Shown: positions 1-57,219 of the stretch, piece after piece
Layout: each line of letters opens with the position of its first letter
How positions within the stretch are numbered: the first letter of the stretch is position 1
Origin: a virus
IMG/VR virus record: IMGVR_UViG_3300046786_000502
Coordinates: 1 to 64,000 of that record
Direction: 5' to 3' (one strand)
Length of the DNA: 64,000 nucleotides
Notes under the pieces: model-generated
What the model was told of the DNA's origin: nothing
The model's input: only the letters and a program-made list of their open reading frames with translations
The model's database searches: none
Position numbers and translations under genes: made by a program

Positions 1-2
1 AT

Positions 3-1415
3 CAGAATGTAACTATTTCTACTGGCAGTGGAGATATCAATCTAAACGCAGATGGCACCACAAAGATTTGGGGTCAAGCAGTAGCAACTCAAGCGTATGC
101 TGATGGACTTGCAGTAAACTATGACGCTGCAGGATCTGCAACCACTGCAGAAAATAATGCAAAATCTTACGCAGATAGCCTTGCAACTAACTATGATGCA
201 GCAGGTTCTGCATCAGCAGCACAAGCAGCAGCAGAGGCAACTGCTTCAGCAGATGCTACAGATAAAGCTAACACTGCAGAGCAAAATGCTAAGGACTACG
301 CAGATGCAAAAGTAAATGATGCATCATCTGCTACAGATAAAGTTTGGTCAGCATACAAGACAGGAACAGAAATTAGTGTTGCTCAAACAGCAGCACAGAA
401 CTATGCAGATAACGCTGTAGCAGCACTGATTGACCAAGCACCAGCAATGCTTGACACTCTTAACGAGTTGGCAGCAGCACTTGGTGACGATGCAGACTTT
501 ATTGGAACTGTAAACTCAGCAATTGGTGAGAAGGTAGCTAAGTCTGGCGACACAATGACTGGAGAACTTGTTCTTGCAGCAGATCCAACACAGGCTCTAG
601 CAGCAGCAACAAAGCAGTATGTAGATACACAGTCATCAGATGCTTATAACGATGCAATTGCTCAAGCAGATCAGACTGCTCAAGGATACGCAACTACAGC
701 AGAAAACAATGCTAAGGGATATGCTGATGGCCTTGCAACTAACTATGATGCAGCAGGTGCAGCAACTACAGCTGAAACTAATGCAAACACATACACAGAT
801 AACGCAATCAATGCACTTACAACTGATGATATCCCAGAAGAGACTCTTGCTCCTGTAAATAGATACTTCACAGATGCACGTGCAAAGACAGCAGCTGCTG
901 ACTTGCTAACCAGTGCCAACCTAACAAATATCACCATTACTGGTGATGGCAATGGTATTACAATTGCAGCAGAAAATGGTATCGCAGATTCTACAACATC
1001 TGATCTTGTAGAAGGTTCAAACCTCTACTTCACAGATGCACGTGCAGTATCAGCACTTGAGGCGGTAGTTCCTAACTTTACTGAGATTGACCTTAATAAC
1101 ATTGTTACTAATGTCGCTACTCAGGCTACAGTTGCTACAGCTAGCCAGGTAACAGCACATGAGTTCGACTCAGCTGTATACCGTTCAGCAGAATATACAG
1201 TAAAGGTTGCCTATGGCTCACACACAGAGCTATCAAAGGTAATGATTACTCTTGACTCTGCAGACAACATTGCAATTACAGAATATGCTGTTGTTGGAAC
1301 TAACGGTTCTGCATCAACTATCACAGCAGATGTTAATGCTGGCAATGTAAGACTTCGTGTCACTACAGCCAACAACAACTCTATCGTGACTGTATTTGGA
1401 ACAATTATTAAGTAA
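3..1415 (+). CDS. Tail/virion fibre protein, 5' end truncated by the window edge
   Basis: The frame of ORF 447..1415 reads open back to position 3 (QNVTISTGSGDINLNADG...). It has repeated YADGLAxNYDAAGSA units, an APAMLDTLNELAAAL motif, AATKQYVD and NxYFTDARA fibre motifs, and a C-terminal YRSAEY...ITEY beta-rich domain. Confidence 0.75.
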   Translation, partial: QNVTISTGSGDINLNADGTTKIWGQAVATQAYADGLAVNYDAAGSATTAENNAKSYADSLATNYDAAGSASAAQAAAEATASADATDKANTAEQNAKDYADAKVNDASSATDKVWSAYKTGTEISVAQTAAQNYADNAVAALIDQAPAMLDTLNELAAALGDDADFIGTVNSAIGEKVAKSGDTMTGELVLAADPTQALAAATKQYVDTQSSDAYNDAIAQADQTAQGYATTAENNAKGYADGLATNYDAAGAATTAETNANTYTDNAINALTTDDIPEETLAPVNRYFTDARAKTAAADLLTSANLTNITITGDGNGITIAAENGIADSTTSDLVEGSNLYFTDARAVSALEAVVPNFTEIDLNNIVTNVATQATVATASQVTAHEFDSAVYRSAEYTVKVAYGSHTELSKVMITLDSADNIAITEYAVVGTNGSASTITADVNAGNVRLRVTTANNNSIVTVFGTIIK

Positions 1416-1431
1416 TTAGAGGAGTAAGTAG

Positions 1432-1893
1432 ATGGCAACAGTAAACAAGGATTTCAAGGTAAAAAACGGAATCCAGGTAGCAGAAGGTGGAGTCTTTGGT
1501 GGCCCTATCGTTGCTAGCGACCCAACTGATGCAACTCACGTAGCTACTAAGGCTTACGTAGATGCTAATTCTGGTGGAGCTGCTGTTGCCTCTACTGCTC
1601 CTTCATCACCTTCAAATGGTGCATTCTGGTATGACACAGTAACAAAGAGAGTAAACATTTACCACGAAGATACTGGTTGGACAACCATTGCAACTATTGA
1701 CGATACATTAACTTTAGCTCAACACATCCACGATACCTCTATTGGCGGTACTGGATTAATTACAACTACATTCCGTGAAGGTGGTTCAGTACCACAAGCA
1801 CCTATGTCAAGTGGAATTGATGGCGGAAGCCCAGGATCAACTGAGTTCACCCTAATCTTTGATGGTGGATCAGTATCTGATAATTTTAACTAA
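1432..1893 (+). CDS. Small fibre-associated structural protein
   Basis: GAGGAG SD upstream; MATVNKDFKVKNG start, ATKAYVD fibre motif, APSSPSNGAFWYDT motif and C-terminal DGG motifs; lies between two fibre genes. Confidence 0.6.
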   Translation: MATVNKDFKVKNGIQVAEGGVFGGPIVASDPTDATHVATKAYVDANSGGAAVASTAPSSPSNGAFWYDTVTKRVNIYHEDTGWTTIATIDDTLTLAQHIHDTSIGGTGLITTTFREGGSVPQAPMSSGIDGGSPGSTEFTLIFDGGSVSDNFN

Positions 1894-1947
1894 AACATAG
1901 GATATAATATAAATCAGGGATATAATTCCTGAAAGAGGAGAAAATAC

Positions 1948-3702
1948 ATGGCAACAAGAATGCAGCAACGCAGAGGTACTGCAGCACAATGGACTGCTGC
2001 AAACCCTATTCTCTCTGCTGGTGAAATTGGTTTTGAGTCCGATTCTGGACAATTTAAGATTGGTGATGGCACAACAGCTTGGACCAGCCTAACATACTTT
2101 AAGAATTTTGACGATCTTGACATTAGCGGATACGTCAAGGATGAAGAGAAAGCAGCTGCAAACGGTGTTGCTACACTAGATGGCAATGCTCAGGTCCCAA
2201 TCTCTCAGCTAAGCAATATCATTCAATCAGCCCCTGCAGAGCTAGATACTCTTGCTGAACTTGCTGCTGGACTAACTACAGCTATTTCAGATCTAAATGC
2301 TGATATTGGCAACTTGGAAACATCAACATCAACTGCCATTGTTGACATCAACACAGATATCACAGCGTTGACTACCAATCTTGCAACAGAGACATCTACA
2401 AGAGAGGCATATGCGACAAGCAATGATGCTGCACTTGAAGACATCAATACAACTTTAACAACACATGCTGGCAATATCTCAGACCTTTCTGATTCTGTTG
2501 CTGCAATTGAGACTCTCAACGGAACACAAGGATCAGCAATTGACACCCTTAACACAACCGTATCTGGAATTCAATCAGACATCGCAGGACTTACAACAGA
2601 CAGCGTTGCAGAGGGTACAAATAACCTATATTTCACTACTGAACGTGCTCAAGATGCCCTTGGTAACGCAGTAGAGGGCGGTACAGGCATTACAGCCACA
2701 TATGACGACTCTACCAACAAGATTACAGTAGCAATTGATGGTACAGTAGCAACTGAGCTTTATGCAGACAACGCAGCATCAGGAGCAATTTCTGATCACA
2801 ATGCAGATACTACAAACGTACATGGTATTTCAGATACCGCAGCTTTGGCAACAAAGACATATGCAGACGATGCAGTTGGAACACACAACTCAGACACAAC
2901 ATCTGTACATGGAATTGCAAATACTGCAGAGCTAGAGACCCAGACAGGTGCTCAAGCAAAGGCAGACAACGCACAGACAGCAGCAGAAGCCACAGCAGCA
3001 GCTACATATGCTCCAAAAGTTGCTCCAGCTATCACTGGTAACGCAACTGCTGAGAACTTGACAATTACAGGAAATCTTACAGTACAGGGAACAACTACAA
3101 CAGTAGATGCAACCAACCTTGAGGTTACAGACTCACTAATTTACCTTGCTGCAGAGCAGTACGACACAGACACTCTAGATATTGGTATCTTTGGTGCTTA
3201 TGGCGACTCAAACTCAGGACACTTCCACACAGGTATCGTTCGTGATGCAACAGATGGAAAGTGGAAGCTTGTTTCTGGAGCAGCTGAGCCAACAGATAGC
3301 CACGTTGACTTTGGAACAGCAACATTTGACACCCTAAAGCTAGGTGGAGTCGAATTTGCAGACGGAATCCAGACAAAGCAGGGTGTTCCATCTATAACTA
3401 CAATCTCTCAGAAGACAGCATCATACACATTGTCAAATCTTAACGAAAGAGATACTCTAATTGAAGTTGGAAGCTCTTCAGCAACAACTCTAACAATCCC
3501 AGCAGATTCATCAGTAGACTACCCAATTGGAACCACTCTTGATATCCTCCAGACTTCTTCTGGACAGGTTACAATTGCAGGTGCAGGTGGAGTTACTGTA
3601 AACGCAACACCAGGTCTAAAGTTGAGAACTCAGTGGTCTTCTGCAACTCTTATGAAGAGAGCAGCAAACACATGGGTTGTCTACGGAGACTTGTCAGCCT
3701 AA
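1948..3702 (+). CDS. Tail fibre protein with Mtd-like N-terminal domain
   Basis: The N-terminus RRGTAAQWTAANPILSAGEIGFESDSGQFKIGDG matches the major tropism determinant N-terminal motif. Also LDTLAELAA, HNxDTTxVHGI repeats and a C-terminal ...WVVYGDL domain; GAGGAG SD. Confidence 0.8.
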   Translation: MATRMQQRRGTAAQWTAANPILSAGEIGFESDSGQFKIGDGTTAWTSLTYFKNFDDLDISGYVKDEEKAAANGVATLDGNAQVPISQLSNIIQSAPAELDTLAELAAGLTTAISDLNADIGNLETSTSTAIVDINTDITALTTNLATETSTREAYATSNDAALEDINTTLTTHAGNISDLSDSVAAIETLNGTQGSAIDTLNTTVSGIQSDIAGLTTDSVAEGTNNLYFTTERAQDALGNAVEGGTGITATYDDSTNKITVAIDGTVATELYADNAASGAISDHNADTTNVHGISDTAALATKTYADDAVGTHNSDTTSVHGIANTAELETQTGAQAKADNAQTAAEATAAATYAPKVAPAITGNATAENLTITGNLTVQGTTTTVDATNLEVTDSLIYLAAEQYDTDTLDIGIFGAYGDSNSGHFHTGIVRDATDGKWKLVSGAAEPTDSHVDFGTATFDTLKLGGVEFADGIQTKQGVPSITTISQKTASYTLSNLNERDTLIEVGSSSATTLTIPADSSVDYPIGTTLDILQTSSGQVTIAGAGGVTVNATPGLKLRTQWSSATLMKRAANTWVVYGDLSA

Positions 3703-3727
3703 GAACTTACAGATAAGGATAAAATAG

Positions 3728-4579
3728 ATGAGCAAAAGAGCAGGTAGACACTCACAGCAAGCCAATGACTTTTTGCAACCAATGGAACCTACAAGCGTTT
3801 CAGCAACAGACATTGGGACTGGAAGAGCATTTAACGATGGTGCAGCATCTGTTAGTTTTTCTTTGCCTGCTAACTCTCCAGCTGCAACATCATATACTGT
3901 AACTGCTTCAACTGGACAGACTGCAACTGGGTCTGCATCTCCAATTACAGTATCTGGAATCCCATCTGATGCAAACGTAACGTTCACTGTTACTGCTACA
4001 AATGCTTCTGGAACATCTGGATCATCTACTGCTTCAGCATCTGTGCTGATTACAACAGTTCCAGGTTCACCAACATCTGTATCTGTATCATCTCCAGACT
4101 CTGGTACTGGTCAGCCATACGACCAGCTTTCTTGGACTGCACCAACCAATAATGGTGGAAAAGCTATTACTAACTATCACTGGACATCTAGTGATGGCAA
4201 GTCTGGCGATTCTTCTACCTCCCCAGTTAACGTAAACCAAGAAGCTGGAACTGCACAAACATATGATGTTTATGCTACAAATGCTAATGGTAACTCCGCT
4301 ATTGGAACATCTGCATCAATTACAACCTTTAGCGTATTTGGATTCTTCTCAGTATTCGGATTCTTCTCAGTATTTGACTTCTTTAGCGTATTCGGATTCT
4401 TCTCAGTATTTGACTTCTTCTCAGTATTTGGGTTCTTCTCAGTATTTGGGTTCTTCTCAGTATTTGGATTCTTTAGCGTATTTAGCTTTGCTCCAGCCTT
4501 CGGCTTCTTCAGCGTCTTCGGCTTTGCCCCATTTGGAGTATTCAGCTTCTCCCCATTCAGAGTATTCTCTTTCAGATAG
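3728..4579 (+). CDS. Fibronectin type III-like protein (two domains) with C-terminal Phe-rich hexapeptide repeat tail
   Basis: Fn3 hallmarks (SYTVT...SPITVSG...TFTVTATNASG; LSWTAPTNNGGKAITNY...YDVYATNANG), then 83 residues of FSVF(G/D/S)F repeats. Confidence 0.8.
   Translation: MSKRAGRHSQQANDFLQPMEPTSVSATDIGTGRAFNDGAASVSFSLPANSPAATSYTVTASTGQTATGSASPITVSGIPSDANVTFTVTATNASGTSGSSTASASVLITTVPGSPTSVSVSSPDSGTGQPYDQLSWTAPTNNGGKAITNYHWTSSDGKSGDSSTSPVNVNQEAGTAQTYDVYATNANGNSAIGTSASITTFSVFGFFSVFGFFSVFDFFSVFGFFSVFDFFSVFGFFSVFGFFSVFGFFSVFSFAPAFGFFSVFGFAPFGVFSFSPFRVFSFR
4328..4525 (+). repeat. Imperfect 18-bp coding tandem repeat, about 11 units, encoding FSVFGF
   Basis: Units such as TTCTCAGTATTTGGGTTC and TTTAGCGTATTCGGATTC repeat head to tail with synonymous variation. 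Confidence 0.95.
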
Positions 4580-4590
4580 TCTGCCATTTA

Positions 4591-4599
4591 TGGTATACT
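4591..4599 (+). promoter_or_regulatory. Extended -10 promoter (TGGTATACT) upstream of the oxygenase cluster
   Basis: TGn-TATACT in the intergenic gap; the same motif class precedes many other genes in the window. Confidence 0.6.
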
Positions 4600-4633
4600 A
4601 ATCTATGAATGAGACATAGAATGGAGTTCACAA

Positions 4634-5311
4634 ATGTCCAATATGGGTATGTCGTATAAAGATCAAACGACACTTAGAAGCACAAGTGCAAGCAACAAGC
4701 CTCACAGATTCTTCGAGGCATTCCTAGACAATGATCTAGATGAACTGGCAAAAGAGCTAAAGATTAGGTACGACCTAATTGAAAATGCCAAAATTGCTGG
4801 GGTAACACCAGTCAGTCCATTTGAAGTATGGAAAGAGTCTGGCAGCATCTCCACTATGAAGTGGAGACAATACAACGTATTCCAGTTCCACATTGACGGA
4901 ATCTATAAGTTGTACAAGGGAATCGGACAGCTAGTCCGTGAAGCGTGTGAATATTATGAGCTTGACTTTGAAAAAGAGCAGTTCATGATCCAAGGATGGT
5001 TTAATATTAACCACGCAGGCCAAGGTAAACTTGGCTGGCATGAACACGGTGGTCCAGGTGCACCAGATTTCCATGGTTACTACTGTGTAAACGCAGAGCC
5101 ATCTTCAACATACTACATGTGTTTTGATGAAGAAAAAGAAAACATTAATAAGAACAACAGATTAGTTCTTTCAGAAATGGGCCACCCACACTCACAGGGC
5201 GAATGGGACTGGGAAGGCGACAGAATTACTGTTGCTTACGATGTAACACCATTTAGATACCTACAGCGTGGTGGACACAATGCAGAACAGCACTGGATCC
5301 CACTAGCATGA
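4634..5311 (+). CDS. Putative Fe(II)/2OG-oxygenase-like cupin, paralogue 1
   Basis: GWFNIN, WHEH, FHGYYCVNAEPS, SEMGHPH and RITVAYD give an HxH...H triad plus a distal Arg, as in double-stranded beta-helix oxygenases. Confidence 0.65.
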   Translation: MSNMGMSYKDQTTLRSTSASNKPHRFFEAFLDNDLDELAKELKIRYDLIENAKIAGVTPVSPFEVWKESGSISTMKWRQYNVFQFHIDGIYKLYKGIGQLVREACEYYELDFEKEQFMIQGWFNINHAGQGKLGWHEHGGPGAPDFHGYYCVNAEPSSTYYMCFDEEKENINKNNRLVLSEMGHPHSQGEWDWEGDRITVAYDVTPFRYLQRGGHNAEQHWIPLA

Positions 5312-5970
5312 TTGAGAAGCCATCGCATAAGTTTTTTGATAGATACCTAGACAATGATCTATCAGAGTTAACGGCATACCTTGTCGATAAAAGAGATTTT
5401 ATTTATGCGAATGGCATCAATGCACCAAAAGAGGTATTTGATGAAAAGCACCAGCGTGGAGATGCATTGACAACTATGCTTGGTGATTATTACAACATAT
5501 TCACCTGGGACCATCCAGCAATTAAAAAGCTATATTTGGGACTACTCGAAACGACCAAAGAAGCATGTGAGTATTACGGCATTAATTTTGATGCTGCTGA
5601 TTACTACATTTGCGGATGGTTCAATATTAATGAAAAGTCTGTTTATGGTGGAGAATCCCCTCTGGGTCATCCAGAGTGGTTCCACGATCATATGCATGGA
5701 ACTGGGGCACCAGTATTCCATGGCTACTATTGTGTGAATGCAGAACCATCATCAACTTTCTATCACATCGATAGAGATGTTGACAAGTTATTTGAAAATG
5801 TAAACAAAAACAATAGACTGGTTTTATCAGAAACTGGTCACCCACATGCGATTGAAAACTGGAATTGGGATGGCAATAGAATTACCATTGCCTATGACAT
5901 AAGTCCAAAAAATCCATCAATGGTTAAGACAGCGTTCGTTGGGGATCACTGGATTAAGTTGGGAAATTAA
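5308..5970 (+). CDS. Putative Fe(II)/2OG-oxygenase-like cupin, paralogue 2
   Basis: GWFNIN, FHDH, FHGYYCVNAEPS, SETGHPH, RITIAYD; ATGA overlap with paralogue 1. Confidence 0.65.
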   Translation: MIEKPSHKFFDRYLDNDLSELTAYLVDKRDFIYANGINAPKEVFDEKHQRGDALTTMLGDYYNIFTWDHPAIKKLYLGLLETTKEACEYYGINFDAADYYICGWFNINEKSVYGGESPLGHPEWFHDHMHGTGAPVFHGYYCVNAEPSSTFYHIDRDVDKLFENVNKNNRLVLSETGHPHAIENWNWDGNRITIAYDISPKNPSMVKTAFVGDHWIKLGN

Positions 5971-5971
5971 T

Positions 5972-6634
5972 ATGGCAGATCACAAATTCTTCGAAAGATA
6001 CCTAGACATATCTGACAACGACTTGGAAGATTTTTATAATTTTTGTATTGTCGTAGAGCAGAAGATGTTGAATGGCGAATTGCCAGGTATTACAAAAGAG
6101 TATGCCCAACAAGTTAAAGAAAAGCCAGGCTGCCTAACCACAAACCTACTAGCTGATTACAATATATTTCAAATGCAGCACAAAGTAATTAGAAAGCTAT
6201 ATGCAGCAGTAAGAGATATGGCCAAAGAGGCATGTGAGCACTACGGTAAAGATTTTAATGAGATGGAATATTATATTCAGGGCTGGATCAATATTGAAGG
6301 TGCAGATGATTGCACACTAGATGAGTATGAACAATACAGCATTGAACCAAATTTGCATGAGCATTCTGGTGGGCTAGGTATGCCAGATATTCATGGATAT
6401 TATTGTGTAAATGCTGAACCATCTACAACACACTATAGAATTAATGGCGTAACACCATTTAGAAATGAAAATAAAAATAATAGGGCAATCCTATCAGAAA
6501 CTGGACATAAGCATGCTCGTGGTTATTGGGGGGATTCAAGCAAAAAGAGAATAACTCTAGCATATGATACAAGAGTTTCAGAGTCAATCCAAGATGGCGG
6601 AGGAGTATCTCAACATTGGGTACCACTAATATAG
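5972..6634 (+). CDS. Putative Fe(II)/2OG-oxygenase-like cupin, paralogue 3
   Basis: Start moved to ATG 5972 (MADHKFFERYLD aligns with the paralogues); LHEH, IHGYYCVNAEPS, SETGHKH, RITLAYD. Confidence 0.65.
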   Translation: MADHKFFERYLDISDNDLEDFYNFCIVVEQKMLNGELPGITKEYAQQVKEKPGCLTTNLLADYNIFQMQHKVIRKLYAAVRDMAKEACEHYGKDFNEMEYYIQGWINIEGADDCTLDEYEQYSIEPNLHEHSGGLGMPDIHGYYCVNAEPSTTHYRINGVTPFRNENKNNRAILSETGHKHARGYWGDSSKKRITLAYDTRVSESIQDGGGVSQHWVPLI

Positions 6635-7266
6635 AGCATAAGTTTTTTACTAAAGACTTGTCTCTAAACCTTAATGATGTGTCTATTCTGTTGTATGATT
6701 TTTTAGATTCTGTTATACCAACAGTAGCACCATCAGAACTGTTAGAAAAATTTGCTGATAATACGGATGGACTGCCAACAGCATCTCTTTCATACTATAA
6801 TCTATTCTTTTCTCAACAAGAAGATATTAAAAAATTAGCTATACACCTCAATGAGCTATTGACAGAGGCATGTACATATTACGGAATAGATTATGATAGC
6901 CACAAATGGGGTCTTCAAGGATGGTTCAATAAGCAGTCGAAGGAAACTATGTGGGATGTTTCTCCAATTGACAATAATGATAAATGGCATGAACACCAAG
7001 ATGGTTCTGGTGCTCCAAAATTCCATGGCTATTTTTGTGTTAATGCTGAGCCATCTGTTACTGTATATATGGTAAACAAAGATCCTGAAAACATAAAAGT
7101 TAATGTAAATAAGAATAATCGTGCAGTATTGTCTGAGGTGGGTCACCCACATGGCATGGGCAATTGGAGGGTAGATGGAGACAGACTCACAATCGCATAC
7201 GATATAATTCCAATAGAGGATTTACCAGAAAAGGAGCATAACTCATGGGTTTTACTAAATGGCTAA
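6616..7266 (+). CDS. Putative Fe(II)/2OG-oxygenase-like cupin, paralogue 4
   Basis: TTG start after GGAGGAG; HKFF, GWFN, WHEH, FHGYFCVNAEPS, SEVGHPH, RLTIAYD. Confidence 0.65.
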   Translation: MGTTNIEHKFFTKDLSLNLNDVSILLYDFLDSVIPTVAPSELLEKFADNTDGLPTASLSYYNLFFSQQEDIKKLAIHLNELLTEACTYYGIDYDSHKWGLQGWFNKQSKETMWDVSPIDNNDKWHEHQDGSGAPKFHGYFCVNAEPSVTVYMVNKDPENIKVNVNKNNRAVLSEVGHPHGMGNWRVDGDRLTIAYDIIPIEDLPEKEHNSWVLLNG

Positions 7267-7406
7267 TGGCCAAGAAGTGTCAAATACTAGGTCATGAGGT
7301 AGTTCGTGGCAGTCAATGTCCAGTTACGGGAATTGTGAAGCTTACTTGTACAAAGTGTGGTGCTGACAATATGCCAAAACACTCATCAGAAGATAGGTTT
7401 AAATAA
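7266..7406 (+). CDS. Small Cys/His-rich (possibly Zn-binding) protein, 46 aa
   Basis: Not in the ORF track. MAKKCQILGHEVVRGSQCPVTGIVKLTCTKCGADNMPKHSSEDRFK; coupled to both neighbours by TAATG stop/start overlaps. Confidence 0.7.
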   Translation: MAKKCQILGHEVVRGSQCPVTGIVKLTCTKCGADNMPKHSSEDRFK

Positions 7407-7942
7407 TGACAAAAGAAGACCTTAAGTCTCAAATTCATTACATTCCAGGGTTTATGCCAGCAGATGTTATAGAAATCATTGACGCATACTCAAGAAAGAA
7501 TGATGGCGAATTTGATGAGTATGGTAATGGAGAAAAAGAATTTACGGTCAATGTATTCAAGAAGGCTGACGCTGACACACAGGCTGTAAGGGCACTGGTG
7601 ACAGAATGGGGCAAGAAGGTCTATGACTTTGTCGTAGAGCACTATGGAGGCGAATTTAAGCCATTTGAGCCAGCAATGTCACACATAGCTAGGTTTGAGT
7701 CTGGGTGGGGCATGCACGAGCACTATGATGCAAGTAAGCCAAACGATATTGCCACACTAATCTATATAAATAATGACTATACTGGTGGAGATATCTACTT
7801 CCCAGAATATGATATTTCTCATAAACCACAACCTGGAGATCTGCTAACCTTTCCAGATAATCCAAGATATATTCATGGAGTCAAGCCAATTGCAGAAGGT
7901 ATCAGATATACAACTCCACGCTGGTTTACACGTATAGTATGA
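7406..7942 (+). CDS. Prolyl 4-hydroxylase-like Fe(II)/2OG oxygenase
   Basis: HYD...LIYINNDYTGGDIYFP...PGDLLTFP...YIHGVKPIAEGIRYT is the canonical HxD...H...R pattern. Confidence 0.85.
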   Translation: MTKEDLKSQIHYIPGFMPADVIEIIDAYSRKNDGEFDEYGNGEKEFTVNVFKKADADTQAVRALVTEWGKKVYDFVVEHYGGEFKPFEPAMSHIARFESGWGMHEHYDASKPNDIATLIYINNDYTGGDIYFPEYDISHKPQPGDLLTFPDNPRYIHGVKPIAEGIRYTTPRWFTRIV

Positions 7943-7964
7943 TAAAATATACTAGGAGAAACTT

Positions 7965-10900
7965 ATGCCTAGTTCATTAAATCAGTATGCGTCTAAAGTA
8001 TTAGCCGATAACCCCATTTCACTATGGTCGCTAGACGATGATTTGTCGTACATAGATCTTGTTGGGCCAACATTAAGAGATCTTGGTGCCTGGGGTGTTG
8101 GTGCAGAGTCATTCACATTAGTAAAAAACAATAATATAGATAGGCCCCTGGCAAACGAAGATTGCTATGTTTTGACTGTTGGTAGATTTAATAACCAGAA
8201 CGTGCAAAAAATTCACGTCATTAGCCCAGCAGTTGGAAAGTTCTCACATATAAATCAAGACCTTTCAACTATTACAATTGGAGCTTTTGTCAATTGTGCT
8301 CCAAAATCATCTGTCGCTGTGTCAATCGGGTATGCCTACGAAGACCCATCATTTGGTTCAAATTATGTGAATAAAAGATTCTCTGAAATTATTGCTGGTA
8401 AATGGATGTTTATATCTGAAACATTTGATCTACCAGAAGGTATGGACACTGACTACTCAATAGATATTGCTTTTGAATACATTGAAGATCCAGACAATTC
8501 ATCTTCTTTCTTTATTTCTGGTGTGTCTACTGGCCAATGGTCAGAATCGTTTAACTCATCAACTACAGGACTAACTCCATTTGCTATTCCAGAAAAAATT
8601 TATGGAGTGGCAAGTGAGCAAGACTGCCTAATTCTTTCAAATTCATGTGCCATAGATGGCAATGGTTATGTATTGGTAGATAGCAATAGACTAGGCCTTT
8701 GTTCAGATTCTGTTCCATTGGTTTTTGGATCACAAAGCTCAGTAACAGTTTCAGATACTCAGTCAGTAAAGGCTTTGATACCAGCTAATGGATTTTTGAA
8801 TAAATCTGGACAGTATAGAGACTACACACTAGAGTTTTGGCTCAGAGCATTACCAACAAATTCATCACCATTTAAGATTGTTGGTCCAGTTGGTAATGAT
8901 TCTGGAATATATGTTGATCAAGAATTCATAACATTAAAAATTGGAAAATATTCAAAAACCTATTACGTTGGTGAATGGTTTAGACCAATGCTTGTTAACC
9001 TATCAGTTTCTGCATCAAGAGCAGTCTTATTTTTAAATGGCGAATCAGTTATTGACCTTACAATAGATCAGTCCACAATTGTTTATCCAGACATGTTGGT
9101 AGATCAGAAGAGTACAGACTGGATAGCTGTATATGGAACTCAGGAGATCCACCCATTTGAAATGGACTGTATATCTTTGTATGGCTATTTGTTTAACAAC
9201 ACAATAGCTAAAAAACACTGGGTATATGGTCAAGCAATTCAAAACCCAGAATCATTGAATCTTCAATATGGAGGTTCAAGCGTTAACATTGACTACTCAT
9301 TTGCAAAATATGCAAACAATTACTCTTATCCAAAACATTCACAGTGGTCAGCTGGAAAAATAAACAATTTAACATTTGACAATAAGTCACTCAAGAATAT
9401 AGTCCCAGAAAAGCCATCAATAGTTGGTAATATTTCAGAGCAAGAGATTCTATCATCTGCAATTGCTTATCAGAACGAGGATGAATCATACATAAGACTT
9501 CCAGAAAACTCTTTTATAAACATTTCAGATGCATCAAAAAATATATCTGGAACATTTAGTGGTGTCTATGCAACTTTTAAAGATCTTGACAATAGCACAG
9601 AAAAAGAAATGCTGATTACGCTTTCTGATAAAAATACTGGAGATAGTTTTGATATCTTTAAAAAAGATGGATACATCAATTATGGATTGACAATTGGTGG
9701 GGTATATACATCAGTAACAACCTCATCACCATTTCTAGGTGGAGAAATCTATACTGTTGGCATAAACTTCAATAAACTATCTAAGGGCTATGGATATCAG
9801 GTAGAAAGATTCTTTGCTAAGGCATCATCTCTTTCTGTTAAGGTTGGCGGATCTGGAAACTCTGATACATACACAGGAAATGTCTATGCATTTGGCCTAT
9901 TCAATGAATATTCTATAGAAGAGTTCGCATCATCATTTAATAGTAGAGGTCTAATCTTTGGAACTGACGATATTTCTGACGCTGAAGGATATGCTGATGC
10001 TGAATACTACAATACTACATTCTGGCAATTTATCTGGGATGGTGGAAATGTTGCCAATTTTGCAACTACACAAGTTCTATCTGGTACAGCAAGCTATAGT
10101 GTAAAGTTCTCAGAAGTTAACAATGCCCTTGATCTAGTTGTTTCATCATCAGGGTCCTGGACATCAGGTTTGCCATTGTCCTATTTTGCAAAAAATATTA
10201 CAGACCAAGATGGCTATCAGAAATATGACCTAGACTTTCTTCAAATAAATGTAGACATTCCAGCACCAAACAAGCTAGTAAAAGTCACAACTAATGGAGA
10301 CGGATGGACATATAGTCAGCTAAAGAATGAGTTCTCAGTACCAGCATCAAGGACCTATGCTGAGCTAGACAACCCACTCTTTACTGGATATAACGACTAT
10401 GCTGATCTTGCAGTAAATACCAAAAATTCTTATAAGCTAGATACTGATGGATATCTAGCAAAGACATACATATACTTTAAAGAAAATAACAGTGGATACT
10501 CAAACTCTGACTCATACTATACAAACTACGCAAAGCTAGATGACGAATCAATTGTTGAGCCAGGGACAGAGTGGATAAACACAAAGTATGAAATTGTAGA
10601 TAACTCAATTATTTATCCACCAGCCAATGTAGACTTTAACTCCCTATCAATATTTGTTGAGGTTAAAATAATTAATGATAATGTAGTTAACAGACCAGTA
10701 TCCATTGCAAACCTAGCTATTTCATCTATGTCATTGAACGAAGTTTCAGAAACGCCAATTGGAACAAGGAATGCTGTAGATATATACCCATATGCAAAGA
10801 ATAGATACTATTATGATTTTAAAAAGAGAAATCCTTTTTCAATTTATAAGGGCAGTACACCACACCTATACTTGAACCAAAATAGTGGTATTCGTGTGTT

Positions 10901-11615
10901 TGGAACAATGGATAGAGAAGTAAACAGAGGAATTGAGATTCCAATCAACGTTAATAAGGTTGACCTATATAGAGTTATTGCCCTACAGGGTTTCATGAAG
11001 TATGATTTGCAATACTTCCCATATTCTCCAACAGAGATATTTGAGATTGAAAGTGATACCACGCATCTCAGATTCTTTGTTCAGGCAGTTCATAAGGATG
11101 GAAAGCGAGGAAAGATTTTCTGTATTAACATGAAAACTGGACAGCTTGAGTCTGGAATTGCTTTCTATCTTAACGGAAAAATTGTTAGAGAGCCAGTCAT
11201 CTCGCTAAAGCAGTGGTCAGCCCTTGGGATTTACTTTAGCAATCAGATTGACTCTTCACTGAATACGGCAGCATTAAGAATTAATGGACCAATGATGTTT
11301 AATAATATATCTTTTTATACATCAAGCAGATTAGCAGAAGTCCTAGAAATTGCTACAAGAAGCTGGCTAGGTGTCAAGGAGTCTGGAAGATTGCAATATG
11401 ACTGGAGATATTGGGAGGGCAGCTTTAAATGGTTCGAGGCCCTAGTCCTAGCTACCCAAAGCTTCTATGGAGTTGATCCAGCAGATATCTATAACTCTTA
11501 CGTTGGATCCACAAAGCTTGTCATAGATGACAAATCAACCATTAGGGCAAATAGGTACAGATTTAGGGTTGTCAATAATGACAACGTGGTAAATACGACT
11601 GTTAATATTGCATAA
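7965..11615 (+). CDS. Large virion structural protein with probable LamG/concanavalin-like domain
   Basis: YASKVLADNPISLWSLDD start and YTLEFWLR...LFLNG LamG-like strands; 1216 aa, beta-rich, just upstream of the head module. Confidence 0.55.
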   Translation: MPSSLNQYASKVLADNPISLWSLDDDLSYIDLVGPTLRDLGAWGVGAESFTLVKNNNIDRPLANEDCYVLTVGRFNNQNVQKIHVISPAVGKFSHINQDLSTITIGAFVNCAPKSSVAVSIGYAYEDPSFGSNYVNKRFSEIIAGKWMFISETFDLPEGMDTDYSIDIAFEYIEDPDNSSSFFISGVSTGQWSESFNSSTTGLTPFAIPEKIYGVASEQDCLILSNSCAIDGNGYVLVDSNRLGLCSDSVPLVFGSQSSVTVSDTQSVKALIPANGFLNKSGQYRDYTLEFWLRALPTNSSPFKIVGPVGNDSGIYVDQEFITLKIGKYSKTYYVGEWFRPMLVNLSVSASRAVLFLNGESVIDLTIDQSTIVYPDMLVDQKSTDWIAVYGTQEIHPFEMDCISLYGYLFNNTIAKKHWVYGQAIQNPESLNLQYGGSSVNIDYSFAKYANNYSYPKHSQWSAGKINNLTFDNKSLKNIVPEKPSIVGNISEQEILSSAIAYQNEDESYIRLPENSFINISDASKNISGTFSGVYATFKDLDNSTEKEMLITLSDKNTGDSFDIFKKDGYINYGLTIGGVYTSVTTSSPFLGGEIYTVGINFNKLSKGYGYQVERFFAKASSLSVKVGGSGNSDTYTGNVYAFGLFNEYSIEEFASSFNSRGLIFGTDDISDAEGYADAEYYNTTFWQFIWDGGNVANFATTQVLSGTASYSVKFSEVNNALDLVVSSSGSWTSGLPLSYFAKNITDQDGYQKYDLDFLQINVDIPAPNKLVKVTTNGDGWTYSQLKNEFSVPASRTYAELDNPLFTGYNDYADLAVNTKNSYKLDTDGYLAKTYIYFKENNSGYSNSDSYYTNYAKLDDESIVEPGTEWINTKYEIVDNSIIYPPANVDFNSLSIFVEVKIINDNVVNRPVSIANLAISSMSLNEVSETPIGTRNAVDIYPYAKNRYYYDFKKRNPFSIYKGSTPHLYLNQNSGIRVFGTMDREVNRGIEIPINVNKVDLYRVIALQGFMKYDLQYFPYSPTEIFEIESDTTHLRFFVQAVHKDGKRGKIFCINMKTGQLESGIAFYLNGKIVREPVISLKQWSALGIYFSNQIDSSLNTAALRINGPMMFNNISFYTSSRLAEVLEIATRSWLGVKESGRLQYDWRYWEGSFKWFEALVLATQSFYGVDPADIYNSYVGSTKLVIDDKSTIRANRYRFRVVNNDNVVNTTVNIA

Positions 11616-11633
11616 TATGGTATACTAATGGTT

Positions 11634-12020
11634 ATGGATTCTTTAATTAGTCAAAAAACTGGAAAGCCCCTTGTAAATAACGTCCGCCGTCAAATAATCG
11701 ATAAGATGTATGACTGGGGTCTATATGTCTACAAAAAGTCTGATGGAAAGTGGTTCACAGATGGAGAGGGCAACGTCCTAAACATACCATCAAATAAAGG
11801 TGACCTAGCACAGATTAAAAAGCTTAGAGATGCTGCAATGCACCATGGCGATGACGGCGAGGGAGAATGTGTTTTTGTTCCAGGACTAGAAAGAGTATCA
11901 GACGAAGTCTATGCTGAGCAGGTAGAAAGAATGAACCAGGGCCTAATTCCTAACCTAAATGACCTAGGTGCAGTCCAGGCAGCTAAGAAAACCCTAGAAC
12001 TTTACGGAGACGAAGAATAA
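11634..12020 (+). CDS. Hypothetical protein upstream of portal
   Basis: ORF track gives 11628; ATG 11634 lies 7 nt after TATACT (11621-11626), the spacing of a leaderless start. TAATG overlap with portal. Confidence 0.7.
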   Translation: MDSLISQKTGKPLVNNVRRQIIDKMYDWGLYVYKKSDGKWFTDGEGNVLNIPSNKGDLAQIKKLRDAAMHHGDDGEGECVFVPGLERVSDEVYAEQVERMNQGLIPNLNDLGAVQAAKKTLELYGDEE

Positions 12021-13660
12021 TGTCAGAAGACAATGGACCAATCTACATCAATGCAAATATCTCTGAGAACGAGGTTAAGGAAGATGTTTTCAAGTCACAA
12101 GACCCATTCCTAAATGATTGGTCTGCCCTTAAGCTATATCAGGGACTAGACAAAAACTTTAAGCGTAGAACAGAGCGTATCAATAAAGCAGATGACCTTA
12201 TGGAGACACGAGTTGTCTCAAGAAATTATGACCTTACAGATCCAGGGTATCAGGACAGTGCACTTGCAGTAAGAACTGGTAGAGATGAGGCACGTTCTAA
12301 AGAGATCAACCCAGGTAGAGTATACAGAAATGGATATGGCATGTTTGATGTCATTACTCCTCCATGGAACCTTTACGAACTTGCAAACTATTACGATACA
12401 TCATTTGCTAACCACGCAGCAATTGATGCTAAGGTAGAAAATATTGTTGGACTAGGCTATGACTTTGAGATGTCAAAGCGTACAATGCTTTCTTTGGATG
12501 CTGCTACTAATGAGAGTGCAATCGAGAAGGCAAAGAAGAGAATTGAAAGAACAAAGGTTGAGCTAAGAGATTGGCTAGAATCTTTAAACTCAGACGAGTC
12601 ATTTACACATGTACTAGAAAAGTTTTATACAGATGTTCAGGCAACTGGAAATGGATATCTTGAAATTGGTAGAACCGTCAAGGGTGAGATTGGTTACGTA
12701 GGTCACATTCCTGCTACAACCATTCGTGTCCGCAGAATGAAAGATGGTTACCTTCAGATTATTGGAAATCGTGTTGTTTACTTTAGAAACTTTGGTGCAA
12801 AGAATCCAAACCCAATTACTGCTGACCCAAGACCTAATGAGATTTTGCACTACAGAGAGTATTCTCCACTAAACTCATTCTATGGTGTGCCAGATATTAT
12901 GTCTGCAATTTCATCTCTTTACGGAGACCAGCTAGCATCTCAGTACAACATCGACTACTTTGGAAACAAGGGTGTTCCACGCTATGTCGTTACGTTGAAG
13001 GGTGCAAAGCTTTCAGAAGACGCAGAAGACAAGATGTTCAGATTTCTTCAGACCAGCCTAAAGGGATCAAACCACAGAACTCTATACATCCCACTTCCTG
13101 GAGACTCAGATACCAATAAGGTTGAGTTCAAGATGGAAGCTGTTGAAAATGGTACTCAGGAAGCATCGTTTAATGAATATCGTATCCGTAATCGTGACGA
13201 CATTCTTGTAGCACATCAGGTTCCGCTATCAAAGCTTGGTGGTGGAGATTCATCAGCTGTCGCTGCTGCTCTTGCACAAGACAGAACATTTAAGGAGCAA
13301 GTGTCTAGACCTGCTCAGGCTAACCTTGCAAAAATGATCAACAGAATTATTCACGAAAAAACAGACATCGTTGATTTTAAGTTTAACGAGCTTACCCTAA
13401 CTGACGAAATTGCACAGTCTCAGATTATTGAAAGATATGTAAAGAATCAGGTCATTACTCCAGACGAGGCAAGAGAGATGCTTGGAATGCCACCTAGACC
13501 TGACGGAGAAGGTAACAAGCCAATGCAGATGAAGCCACAAGATGCTGCAAACGAAACAGCTAATAGAGCGAGAGATGCAGAGAGAGCAAACAATGCATCT
13601 GACAGCACAGCAACAGTTTCTGGTAGAAACCCAAAGGGAGAAGGTAGAGCTTATCAATAA
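12020..13660 (+). CDS. Portal protein
   Basis: TGNGYLEI, EILHYREYSPLNSFYGVPDI, YFGNKGVP, ILVAHQVP and ITPDEAREMLG portal motifs; precedes protease and capsid genes. Confidence 0.92.
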   Translation: MSEDNGPIYINANISENEVKEDVFKSQDPFLNDWSALKLYQGLDKNFKRRTERINKADDLMETRVVSRNYDLTDPGYQDSALAVRTGRDEARSKEINPGRVYRNGYGMFDVITPPWNLYELANYYDTSFANHAAIDAKVENIVGLGYDFEMSKRTMLSLDAATNESAIEKAKKRIERTKVELRDWLESLNSDESFTHVLEKFYTDVQATGNGYLEIGRTVKGEIGYVGHIPATTIRVRRMKDGYLQIIGNRVVYFRNFGAKNPNPITADPRPNEILHYREYSPLNSFYGVPDIMSAISSLYGDQLASQYNIDYFGNKGVPRYVVTLKGAKLSEDAEDKMFRFLQTSLKGSNHRTLYIPLPGDSDTNKVEFKMEAVENGTQEASFNEYRIRNRDDILVAHQVPLSKLGGGDSSAVAAALAQDRTFKEQVSRPAQANLAKMINRIIHEKTDIVDFKFNELTLTDEIAQSQIIERYVKNQVITPDEAREMLGMPPRPDGEGNKPMQMKPQDAANETANRARDAERANNASDSTATVSGRNPKGEGRAYQ

Positions 13661-31600: not shown

Positions 31601-32991
31601 AAAAGAAGCAGTCTCCAACAGGGTCTATGGGATACTACGATAATGGAAAAACTGGTGGAGCTTCAGCAGGTATCGCTGTCCTTTTGAATAAAGAAACCAA
31701 TAATGGATACTATTTTGAGTTATGTGCACTAACAAATGATAGTGTGACGAACACAACGACTGACCCAGATACTGGAGAAGTTACATCAACAAATGTTGTA
31801 TTTAATGATGTTATATTTTATAAGATTAAGTCTGATGGCAGTGGGAATGCTGTGCCAATTAAGCTATGGGGCGGTATTGCAAATATTCTTGTAGACACTG
31901 GAATGTTTGTCGGTCAGAGCAGGGTATATGGAGAAGACAATCCAACAATATACGACCTATCTGTAGAGCACGAAACACTTGGTAATGGATCAAAGCGTTT
32001 CTACCTTTACATCAATAATAGATCAGTTGCTGTGGTAGATGACGAGAATCCACTTCCAGAATATACATCTTTTGCACCTTTCATTAGAGGAACTAGCAAG
32101 GCGATGTTTGAAAATGTGTATGCACTCAAAAAGCGTACAATTGATGATTCAACTGCATCGCTTTCAACACCAGTACAGTCATCAATTTTTGGAATCAATA
32201 ATGTATCAGCTGATGATGCACTTAGAAAATATTCTCTTAGTGGTGCAATCCAGCAAACATACCTCTCTGACATAAGCAGTGGTTCAGGTGCAGGACATGA
32301 CATATACTTTGATGAATTTGGAACTATCATGCGTGAGGCTGCATATTTTAATATTAAATATGATAAGGCATGGCCAGCACTCAATGCTAAGATTGCACCA
32401 ACATTCACTAGACAAAAGGGGTACACAGTTTCTGGATTTACCCCAACCGCATATGGTGCAGACTTCATAGTCTTTAATAATACAGATACTGTAATCAGCT
32501 TGGACGAAACCACTGGTAACTATTTGAGAATTCAGGGTGTAACTTTTACTCAAAATTCAGATAGAAAGCTAACAGTTGACGACTTCTTTAGTCTTAACTC
32601 AGACCTATCTAACGTTGACCAGCTAAACAAAAATCCACTAAAGTCACCAGTAAAAGCTAGCAAAACGTCCTACTCAATCAAGGCAAGCAGAAAGTCATAT
32701 GGTAATTTGGAATTTTCAATTAATGCCAAATATATTCAAAATGCTGCTGCTGCAAATAGTCTGATGGAATGGATGATCAATAAGGTGATGAAGCCAAGAA
32801 AGTCTGTTGGTGTCAGTGTGTTTGGTGGTGGAGTATTACAGTTGGGTGATATCGTACAAATTTTCTGGACAGAAAATGATGTAGATCAGATCGTTGATAG
32901 AAACAAGAGATTCGTTGTTTATTCATGCGAGTACCAAAGAGGCGTAGATGGACCATCATCAATTATTTATCTTAGCGAGGTTACAGAATAA
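28693..32991 (+). CDS. Large minor tail / tail-tip hub protein
   Basis: 1432 aa after Dit; LQDLAISAQAAMFFNE and C-terminal LQLGDIV hub-like motifs. Confidence 0.7.
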   Translation: MFGNQTLVNYLQKASSIDVKPIILAEWNMNIAENFDAIGNYRYRKTSNSIYSTLPSTYDRYDQGNYYTGATQSDVTLDNGYDDSNQPQQFTSVDENMKNLFSLEECFGKYRPRSGINKARLTKFWGYSSKDVASRPRYYVATRKDKFKYWTSYRYESGLAKGISYSLPAGGYGIDDACPFIVYKDSVPTNRIVVKMQTHVGSKNNGPFYSSTGSQFSDPFFGYQNSQTPATWRIQYLEDSVWKDAISFSSTDVRSGNRPIIGPDGNVEIAYGLKVPNNFKNTFNFKRIIKTVEMLPNNDVVGSAYLFKPTETSKGILYIFNGSAFIGYDAQYEWSLLDGVVDYRNVVDKLSNPDYFINTLTGLRQYEKFVNIYGLRVVVETMNTDGSSFDLIEMSPRLVADMTDMVTDYSVTKSLSDLGASGMPVGQLLAGTGSVKLFDYNQTFNENNPASVIKNFIRQNIKFMFYEQMSDNNGNQYMIPIKTLYSSTRPAISGGNRDVSIELRDLTHLMEQTSCPELMMVDVSFSVAVTTLLDSIGFTNYKFYRTSGETEITIPYFYTNPESSVLQTLQDLAISAQAAMFFNEENDFIIMSKNYMMPTTAQRPTDFILSGEKTDAISANIESISTQDSKVFNNGSISYQEKYIQRSYGSLKQAMLLDRNKTWIYKPVLLWEAAGDQNTKTQTGQISNASNYTLSAVPLNSALSSQLPEVVGGQIRNNTMDLGEGVYFLSRYNGYFYANGEVIRYDAVQYSIPNGPGNVWIQSAQEYSDYFQDVKFAKSMFPTGLVRIYCEPFYEEVNGVTVFKNGPVNKHGRMQFNTGQRNSAGVLEPVTHNAGLALEWSSQSVNPTRGCKVSLNTTLNFDPKNAKTASVAAQVGNAGVANSTVSSALRAGIIKNSMGGTDKTDAQVAALQNTEIGTVQSSALVMTGPTFASDIMAQDYISYVPKTLSQVYAHYGTRLRIIGQYEDGKQKKQSPTGSMGYYDNGKTGGASAGIAVLLNKETNNGYYFELCALTNDSVTNTTTDPDTGEVTSTNVVFNDVIFYKIKSDGSGNAVPIKLWGGIANILVDTGMFVGQSRVYGEDNPTIYDLSVEHETLGNGSKRFYLYINNRSVAVVDDENPLPEYTSFAPFIRGTSKAMFENVYALKKRTIDDSTASLSTPVQSSIFGINNVSADDALRKYSLSGAIQQTYLSDISSGSGAGHDIYFDEFGTIMREAAYFNIKYDKAWPALNAKIAPTFTRQKGYTVSGFTPTAYGADFIVFNNTDTVISLDETTGNYLRIQGVTFTQNSDRKLTVDDFFSLNSDLSNVDQLNKNPLKSPVKASKTSYSIKASRKSYGNLEFSINAKYIQNAAAANSLMEWMINKVMKPRKSVGVSVFGGGVLQLGDIVQIFWTENDVDQIVDRNKRFVVYSCEYQRGVDGPSSIIYLSEVTE

Positions 32992-49354: not shown

Positions 49355-49663
49355 TTGGCACGTAAGAAGGCTTTTGCAGAACCACTAGAGACTAAATTTT
49401 CTAGAGAGTTCTCAATGGAGGTTAATGGGTTTGAGATTAACCGTGGTGATATAATTAAGATTAGTGGAGAATATGGCCTCAAGTTTAAATTTGATGCTAT
49501 TGTTACCAACAAGGAGACTGGCTCAAAATGGGTAGACTGCTTCGAAATCCATCGAGGTATGTCTCATTCATATAGGTCATTTGATATGGGCAGGGTAAAA
49601 AGAATTCCACAGAAGGGCAAACGAGGTGTACGAAAGAATACAGCACAAGTCGTATCCAACTAA
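49355..49663 (+). CDS. Hypothetical protein
   Basis: TTG start right after the upstream stop; RGDIIKISGE...WVDCFE. Confidence 0.65.
   Translation: MARKKAFAEPLETKFSREFSMEVNGFEINRGDIIKISGEYGLKFKFDAIVTNKETGSKWVDCFEIHRGMSHSYRSFDMGRVKRIPQKGKRGVRKNTAQVVSN

Positions 49664-54130: not shown

Positions 54131-54138
<8 letters not shown>
53737..54138 (+). CDS. nrdI: NrdI flavodoxin
   Basis: [25 protein letters not shown]. Confidence 0.95.

Positions 54139-57219
<3,081 letters not shown>

Follow-up and report, generated by a model that had tools for sequence, protein, structure and literature searches.

Can a tailed phage modify the repeat tail of its own fibre-tip protein with enzymes encoded directly behind it? 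The question is raised by the first 64 kb of IMG/VR virus record IMGVR_UViG_3300046786_000502 (116,893 bp in all). This stretch of 64,000 nucleotides is called the window below, and G000 coordinates are positions in the whole 116,893-bp record. Behind a fibre gene, the gene at 3728-4579 encodes a protein with two FnIII domains and a phenylalanine-rich C-terminal repeat. Genes for four paralogous oxygenase-like enzymes, a small Cys/His protein and a prolyl 4-hydroxylase-like (P4H-like) enzyme follow, and a gene for a 1216-aa protein closes this slot. An earlier interpretation, made from the letters of the window alone and called here the sequence-only reading, had proposed that the enzymes act on the repeat tail as their substrate. 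The anatomy of the locus, the folds, the conservation of catalytic-type residues, the linkage of the genes and the correspondence of the enzyme set with the repeat type are directly established. It is a serious possibility, somewhat short of even chances, that the disordered, 46%-Phe tail of the fibre-tip FnIII protein serves as substrate for the enzymes of the slot.

A phenylalanine-rich tail on a tandem FnIII protein

In the AlphaFold2 model of the 3728-4579 protein, two beta-sandwich domains cover residues ~20-200 with a predicted local distance difference test score (pLDDT) >90. The best PDB matches of this model are tandem FnIII pairs (Foldseek, E ~4e-9), and the modelled structure places the protein in the tandem FnIII class. 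When applied to the protein itself, Pfam gives PKD_6 alone, below threshold; PF00041 (fn3) is matched in 26 of 31 long homologues. The 83 residues of the tail comprise 38 F, 14 S, 12 V, 9 G, 3 P, 2 D and 2 R, and 10 of the 12 FxxFxF units are of the form FSVF[G/D/S]F. Hence the two Fn3-like domains and the 83-residue FSVF(G/D/S)F tail of the sequence-only reading are borne out by AlphaFold2, Foldseek and composition. At the DNA level, Tandem Repeats Finder reports a period of 18 with 7.8 copies at 4334-4473, the repeat units have partly diverged at synonymous sites, and the repeat material includes FSVFGF units and the stretch FAPFGVFSFSPF. Such a composition is rare in this genome, since at least 20 Phe per 83 residues are reached by only 2 of the 191 six-frame open reading frames (ORFs) of at least 100 aa in the whole record, namely 3728-4579 and G000 114462-115004. 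Modelled alone, the tail (residues ~205-283) has a pLDDT of 32-46 and no confident fold, which suggests that it is accessible. With 3 Pro in 83 residues, it has neither the regular X-Pro-Gly pattern nor the Pro-rich repeat of a collagen-type substrate.

The protein belongs to a family that is large and known solely from uncultured phages, as far as the sequences searched can tell. Among 8000 scored candidates, 921 homologues were found at E<=1e-3. The 120 best of them conserve the N-terminal peptide as well as the FnIII domains, with an aromatic repeat behind these in nearly every case. The repeat unit depends on the lineage (FSVFGF, FSPFGVFGF, FGFTP, PFF, GFFSPP, YSFTP, FGA, YNF), and at least seven types of aromatic repeat can be distinguished. 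The Pro fraction rises to 0.29-0.35 in the PFF and GFFSPP tails of relatives.

Three kinds of tail ending occur in the family: a short ..F-R as in the window, where the protein ends ..FSFR and has no Hint-like domain; a Cys-rich knot; and a domain of ~170 aa with Cys as its first residue and ..HN at its end. This last domain, which starts C-I/V-D-x-D-T, follows the repeat in about half of the listed FnIII homologues. Five of 31 long forms match the Hint-type Pfam models PF14890 or PF13403, and with moderate confidence the domain can be considered Hint-like; the PDB sequence match to the structure 2lwy of a bacterial intein-like (BIL) domain is non-significant (E 0.78). Cys-rich knots (e.g. ..GCRG.KPYPYC.CQ....C) are seen in homologues P0095, P0104 and P0111 and at loci L058, L042 and L046. 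In long forms of FGA type (L037 5677-7209 and L051 8302-10095), a pair of aromatic-repeat stretches flanks an insert made up of a Pro/Val/Thr-rich linker and Cys-rich modules, ahead of the Hint-like domain.

Oxygenase-like enzymes behind the FnIII gene

The genome holds no copies of the paralogs beyond the four in the slot. They are 42-45% identical to paralog 1 and share invariant H-x-H, H, G-H-x-H and R-x-T motifs. Conservation across 77 family members reaches at least 90% at H126, H128, H138, H180, R191 and T193. The conserved pattern at the putative metal site is H126-x-H128 ... H180, that is, H-x-H instead of H-x-D/E, and R191-x-T193 sits 11 residues past H180. In 2-oxoglutarate (2OG) oxygenases, a basic residue (R-x-S/T) about 10 positions after the distal His binds the C5 carboxylate of 2-oxoglutarate. 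The AlphaFold2 model of paralog 2 has a pLDDT of 94. Its top Foldseek matches are 3bvc (1.1e-6) and 2rg4 (1.6e-6), with TM scores of 0.63-0.67 and 12-13% identity; both are PF13759-type structures from marine alphaproteobacteria, deposited as uncharacterised. SnoK, PHD2, HygX and ACC oxidase come next, at E values from 1e-5 to 3e-4. On this model, the paralogs share a 2OG-oxygenase-like double-stranded beta-helix fold.

The relation of the paralogs to known families is distant. A profile built on them retrieves 276 cluster representatives at E<=1e-3 from 1.84 billion proteins, and 12 of the 77 aligned family members match PF13759 (2OG-FeII_Oxy_5) at E<=0.01, the best at 2.8e-5. None of the four window paralogs matches PF13759 at E<=0.1, and no Pfam or PHROG model is matched by any of them. 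A genome-wide PF13759 search finds no paralog either, its sole match scoring 14 bits, below the cut-off, at 93080-93202 (-). Thus, the paralogs are called PF13759-like rather than members of that family. In a PDB sequence search, their profile gives chance-level matches only, to formin and Hook proteins (E >=0.014). PHROGs also hold no family for the FnIII protein, the small Cys/His protein or the 1216-aa protein. In a tree, the paralogs group in orthologue clades according to their position in the slot, paralog 1 falling among 37 first-position genes with support 96. This indicates that the duplications are old and that each copy has been kept. Given the conserved residues, the orthologue clades and the modelled fold, the enzymes look active. 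The "four HxH...H cupin oxygenases" of the sequence-only reading were therefore roughly right, the better description being double-stranded beta-helix enzymes that are PF13759-like and have an unusual H-x-H.

The 46-aa Cys/His protein and the HxD...H prolyl-hydroxylase-like enzyme, also announced by that reading, are present, the former with 53 or 46 aa and the latter scoring above the PF13640 cut-off. The motif of the small protein (C..GH..CPVTG..CxxC..H) is kept by 66 unique homologues, and the protein co-occurs with the paralogs across related loci. For the P4H-like enzyme, the best PDB sequence matches are prolyl 3-hydroxylase 1 (6.3e-5) and a bacterial P4H (1.2e-3). Both its distal HGV and the arginine of its GIRYT have aligned counterparts in prolyl 3-hydroxylase 1, and H-Y-D is found in its sequence. 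From these nearest solved relatives, we infer that it acts on peptidyl proline. The genes are tightly coupled, as had been noticed: a gap of 54 nt separates the FnIII gene from paralog 1, and overlaps or gaps of at most 22 nt follow up to position 7965.

Linkage and covariation of the enzymes with the repeat tail

Related loci, examined as +/-10 kb stretches, were gathered from two sides. Seeding with the paralogs in IMG/VR (best 80 of 270 confirmed) gave 78 new loci (L088-L165), a set biased towards presence of the enzymes. Seeding with the FnIII protein, regardless of enzymes, gave 83 loci, 64 of them unique and 58 of these with at least 3 kb downstream; the 58 constitute the sole enzyme-unbiased set. 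Many loci are near-copies, and counts given as unique are per unique FnIII sequence. For the repeat types, 110 unique FnIII sequences were reduced to 82 by a filter (at least 220 aa, NDFL inside the first 40 residues) and to 75 with at least 3 kb downstream.

An FnIII-repeat gene lies upstream of the paralogs, on the same strand, in 75 of the 78 paralog-seeded loci; two are too short to tell and one lacks it. In the enzyme-unbiased set, paralogs are found at 33 loci and P4H-like genes at 43, so that 47 of the 58 carry one or both families and 11 carry neither. In 37 of 50 unique paralog-bearing loci, no more than 120 bp separate the start of the first paralog ORF from the FnIII ORF, and this adjacency spans FnIII proteins that are merely 50-60% identical. 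The sequence-only reading had asked whether repeat and oxygenases go together and whether they covary. Within this lineage they do go together, and, over the 75 unique loci, enzyme family and copy number follow the repeat type (Table 1).

Table 1. Enzyme genes found with each type of repeat tail (75 unique loci)
Repeat type	Loci	Loci with paralogs	P4H-like genes
VFGF	44	43	at least one in 43 loci
FGFTP	5	5	0 to 2
YNF	2	2	none
PFF	12	0	3 to 10
GFFSPP	1	0	6
FGA	6	0	none
YSFTP	5	0	none

Where paralogs are present at VFGF, FGFTP and YNF loci, they number 1-4. Taken over the seven types, the median count of P4H-like genes rises with the Pro fraction of the tail (Spearman 0.78, p 0.039), with YSFTP as the outlier. 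In a tree of the first 120 residues, the enzyme-free FGA lineages are nested among enzyme-bearing VFGF lineages. An apparent rule that short repeats come without enzymes was discarded as an artefact of the regular expression, the tails in question carrying other repeat types.

The usual gene order in the lineage is FnIII, paralogs, Cys protein, ribonucleotide reductase (RNR), P4H-like, large gene. The RNR of the slot is a class II (B12-dependent) enzyme and near-invariant, with 676-677 aa (e.g. L013 6258-8315). The window phage has no RNR in its slot and carries another ribonucleotide reductase (large subunit) at 54131-56245. Sulfotransferase-like (PF03567) genes were seen in the slots of L058 (10982-12492), L077 (6313-9161) and L016 (2916-4125). 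L058 and L077, with Tyr-rich YSFTP/YAFTP tails, add DUF6171, and L077 also has a PF05118 Asp/Asn beta-hydroxylase and DUF6065. L016 has a VFGF-type tail and, by eye, a sulfotransferase-type motif, HIPRTAG. The Tyr-rich cases raise the idea of tyrosine sulfation.

A second protein with the same repeat type

The second Phe-rich ORF of the record encodes a protein with FNVFGF-type repeats. If the record ends are joined, it lies ~6.2 kb upstream of position 3728. A second fibre gene stands directly before it. The last 120 aa of the 1948-3702 fibre are 32% identical to this second fibre (E 2e-12), and both fibres end GDL(S/T)A, the first with GDLSA and the second with GDLTA. Both repeat tails of the genome terminate in ..VFSFR. 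Fibres with a shared end, each followed by a repeat-tailed protein, suggest a fibre-plus-tip cassette that is used twice, and the fibre block seems to run across the record ends with two such pairs. Another member of this block, encoded at G000 111452-112360 (+), has collagen-like Gly-X-Y runs (GPIGPKGDPGDNG.., GDKGDKGDKGDTG..).

The arrangement recurs in relatives. With a relaxed filter, a second repeat-tailed ORF was found 4-8.5 kb upstream, on the same strand, in 19 of 37 unique loci having at least 8 kb upstream; a stricter first filter had passed 6 of the 37. The dominant repeat unit is identical in both genes at 18 of these 19 loci, across the VFGF, FGFTP, YSFTP and PFF types, and the matched pairs include YSFTP loci devoid of both enzyme families. 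This second protein with the same repeat type per genome is a new observation. It implies that each genome is held to a single repeat type, by selection or by copying.

Is the tail the substrate?

The substrate role of the tail, the chemistry and the benefit to the phage are what we infer from this arrangement, and a possible course of events would be the following. Late in infection, the tip protein would be made, together with the second, similarly tailed protein. The four PF13759-like enzymes, each separately conserved, would oxidise side chains of the repeat units, most likely by Fe(II)/2-oxoglutarate-dependent hydroxylation, and the P4H-like enzyme would hydroxylate the few prolines (FAP, FSP). 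Oxidation could turn a very sticky tail soluble, or make it fit to assemble or adhere. Linkage within the lineage and covariation of enzymes with tails speak for such a model, as does the sequence relationship of the P4H-like enzyme to solved enzymes acting on peptidyl proline. A broader version, which appears doubtful at present, may be imagined: aquatic phages would tailor their fibre tips post-translationally, with at least seven tail types, two tip proteins per genome and a matching set of phage enzymes for each. PF13759-like enzymes would serve F-x-V-F-G-F tails, expanded prolyl hydroxylases PFF tails, and possibly a sulfotransferase and an Asp/Asn hydroxylase Tyr-rich tails, a Hint domain then cutting or ligating the tail end in many lineages.

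A number of observations weigh against the tail as substrate, and several of them favour an alternative to which we give equal credence. In this alternative, the stretch between the fibre block and the 1216-aa gene would be a variable island of auxiliary enzymes acting on nucleotides, metabolites or host proteins, the adjacency to the FnIII gene being inherited gene order. The class II RNR stands between the FnIII gene and the 1216-aa-type gene in 36 of 60 unique loci, and the slot of L085 holds a cobalamin adenosyltransferase. Other slots hold DUF6065-like, sulfotransferase-like (PF03567), Asp/Asn-hydroxylase (PF05118) and DUF6171 genes. In L161, a close orthologue of paralog 1 is found amid P4H-like, dUTPase and ThyX genes, with no FnIII gene within 9.9 kb upstream. 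Among 80 loci of distant paralog relatives, 48 offer at least 2.5 kb upstream and lack both an FnIII gene and an aromatic-repeat ORF, repeat ORFs having been sought on the + strand; 16 more are too short, and the 16 with a repeat gene belong to this lineage. Some of the distant relatives occur in arrays of small genes of ~200 aa on contigs of 160-340 kb. PF13640 genes are also scattered elsewhere in the present genome (Table 2), and T4-like cyanophages offer a parallel with their several 2OG-Fe(II) oxygenase genes (PMC3037559). The sequence-only reading had named as grounds for abandoning it repeat genes that commonly lack oxygenases and oxygenases without the repeat gene. Both situations exist in part, the former in the 11 enzyme-free loci of the unbiased set and the latter in these 48.

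Other difficulties concern the details of the locus. The P4H-like gene, rather than standing beside the FnIII gene, ends within 120 bp of the large-gene homologue in 41 of 42 loci, and the window tail offers such an enzyme merely 3 Pro. The junction of the FnIII gene with paralog 1 has a promoter-like site, in a scan that is overall at chance level. FGA and YSFTP tails occur without either enzyme family and the VFGF locus L018 without paralogs; judging from the enzyme-free FGA and YSFTP tails, such tails can in general do without being modified by these families. Regarding the covariation, there are 2 independent contrasts on well-supported branches (5-6 on all branches); both run in the expected direction and the test is non-significant. 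As the tail-coding end adjoins the slot, inheritance as a block could give the same covariation. Nevertheless, an enzyme island does not predict that enzyme family and copy number track the amino-acid make-up of the tail, except through such block co-inheritance, nor does it predict that the first paralog so often starts close behind the FnIII ORF while the FnIII proteins diverge. In short, the tail-as-substrate proposal gains from linkage and covariation, and loses from the mixed content of the slot and the weak phylogenetic test.

The matching of the two repeat proteins can be accounted for in another manner. The tail might work unmodified, as a docking or co-assembly module that binds the second tail, the shared end domain of the fibres or a hydrophobic host surface, the partner keeping the repeat type equal. 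This would fit the 18 matching loci, enzyme-free YSFTP ones included, the position of both repeat proteins after fibres that share a C-terminal domain and the common ..VFSFR ends. However, docking leaves the covariation of enzymes with tails unexplained, and gene conversion between the two genes could also match the repeats; taken as the whole explanation, it is unlikely, and it is compatible with modification rather than exclusive of it. The possibility that the enzymes serve another virion protein is very remote. The candidates would be the 1216-aa protein, next to which the P4H-like gene lies, and the tail-block protein at 32991-34097 (368 aa), whose Pro/Thr/Lys-rich start (PKPTPAP..) makes it a possible prolyl-hydroxylase substrate. 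A scan of the genome ORFs of at least 150 aa saw a sole Pro-rich stretch, at 32976-34094, and none in the 1216-aa protein. Moreover, the paralogs stay on the FnIII side of the slot.

Relation to known systems

The closest known case is that of the chlorovirus PBCV-1 (Paramecium bursaria chlorella virus 1), for which a prolyl 4-hydroxylase and Pro-rich repeat peptides as its proposed substrates have been described (PMC7019647). The likeness lies in a small virus-encoded 2OG-Fe(II) prolyl hydroxylase with virus-encoded repeats as proposed substrates. In the sections of that article consulted here, the role of the enzyme in replication is given as still unknown, and hydroxyproline as not detected in virion proteins (PMC7019647). 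PBCV-1 is a eukaryotic virus with Pro-rich repeats, whereas in the present case the virus is a phage, the repeats are Phe-rich and the main enzymes are PF13759-like, in four old copies. T4-like cyanophages carry several small 2OG-Fe(II) oxygenase genes per genome, clustered in variable regions, with substrates described as unknown. Roles in DNA repair or a link to 2-oxoglutarate levels are proposed and, in the sections of the article consulted, no protein substrate (PMC3037559). In contrast, a sub-branch of oxygenases is tied here to a virion-type gene at nearly all paralog-seeded loci.

The sequence-only reading had also drawn an analogy with clusters for ribosomally synthesized and post-translationally modified peptides (RiPPs). 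A repetitive peptide beside tailoring-type enzymes is indeed common to both. However, the analogy fails in its essentials: there is no leader, the repeat forms the C-terminus of a virion-type protein whose two folded domains span 200 residues, and the cassette of the relatives includes an RNR. Among the slot genes scanned with Pfam and PHROG, no protease, exporter or transporter family was recognised. As to BIL/Hint proteins, the likeness is restricted to the C-terminal Hint-like domain of relatives, the window protein having none. A search of the literature, mostly open-access and with supplements excluded, returned nothing on Phe-rich-repeat FnIII proteins, Hint-capped phage repeat proteins or protein substrates of phage oxygenases.

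The genomes of lake and ocean phages are rich in 2OG-Fe(II) oxygenase genes with unknown substrates, and one branch of these enzymes now gets a defined candidate substrate. Because this candidate is defined and easily expressed, the question is directly accessible to co-expression and mass spectrometry. If the tail is indeed modified, phages would decorate receptor-binding appendages with their own enzymes, adding a new layer to host recognition; on the broader version, the first natural substrates for a large orphan class of phage 2OG oxygenases would be at hand. Even if the substrate reading fails, there remains a large family of FnIII proteins with aromatic repeats, switching repeat types, Hint or Cys-knot ends and a matching of repeats between two genes.

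Coordinates, expression and genome context

Table 2. Position of the genes and sites discussed (window coordinates unless marked G000)
Feature	Position	Strand	Remarks
Fibre protein	1948..3702	+	584 aa; Mtd_N-type N-terminus (Pfam PF18454, 3.9e-14), PHROG tail-fibre families
Tip-type protein	3728..4579	+	283 aa; conserved N-terminal peptide (..NDFLQP..), two FnIII domains (modelled), aromatic repeat tail
Repeat tail	4328..4576	+	83 residues, 12 FxxFxF units, 46% Phe
Promoter-like site, TG-extended -10	4571..4599	+	in the 54-nt gap before paralog 1; consensus match alone
Paralog 1	4634..5311	+	225 aa; PF13759-like double-stranded beta-helix (predicted); lineage-wide position-1 orthologue
Paralog 2	5308..5970	+	220 aa; copy used for modelling
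Paralog 3	5972..6634	+	220 aa
Paralog 4	6616..7266	+	216 aa, TTG start; most divergent copy, end branch 0.96 in tree
Small Cys/His protein	7245..7406	+	53 aa, or 46 aa from ATG at 7266; C..GH..CPVTG..CxxC..H
Prolyl-hydroxylase-like 2OG-Fe(II) oxygenase	7406..7942	+	178 aa; PF13640, 33.6 bits vs cut-off 27
1216-aa protein	7965..11615	+	closes slot; no Pfam or PHROG match; context gene
Further PF13640 gene	49626-50372	+	just before terminase gene
Two tandem DUF6065-like homologues	63542-64000 to G000 65077
Further PF13640 gene	G000 ~93068-93304	-
Second fibre	G000 113767-114450		directly before second repeat-tailed protein
Second repeat-tailed protein	G000 114462-115004	+	181 aa; FNVFGF-type repeats, ..VFSFR end, no FnIII domain

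Homologues of the 1216-aa gene lie downstream in most related loci, and in the window the region of this gene is followed by the portal gene at 12020. A scan of 1-12500 for promoters and terminators gave counts not above those of shuffled sequences (36 promoter-like sites, 38.7 being expected from shuffles). Besides the paralogs and the fibre genes, the RNA contigs of three libraries match the FnIII gene in its 5' part, all at >=99% identity, one contig bridging paralogs 1-4 (4662-6979). They stop at ~4146-4174 and restart at 4662-4680; contigs of the DNA run break too, at 4420-4467, in the repeat region. These RNA contigs are compatible with expression, and DNA carry-over may contribute to them. 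Co-folding of paralog 2 with tail residues 196-283 gave a score of 0.00; this run had no controls and is counted neither for nor against binding.

The DUF6065-like gene was considered as a linked partner and set aside, for it follows the FnIII gene in enzyme-free loci yet lies ~60 kb away in this genome. Searched in the Atlas, it gave just its own viral clusters and no fold.

Concerning the phage itself, the record has a completeness rating of 100% and no end repeats. The window encodes a tailed-phage gene set, with a head protease at 13735 and a major head protein at 15055 besides the portal, as well as a DnaB-type helicase (37474), a terminase (50888) and a ribonucleotide reductase (54131). 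Judging from sequence comparison, there are no close cultured relatives. Against 50,697 GenBank phage records, window DNA 3000-9000 matches over just ~1-2% of its length, and neither the FnIII protein nor paralog 2 yields a tblastn match at E<=1e-3. The one hint of the host, a weak one, comes from the portal, which shares 44.5% identity with those of Streptomyces phages. Public runs containing the stretch of the window carry freshwater-metagenome labels.

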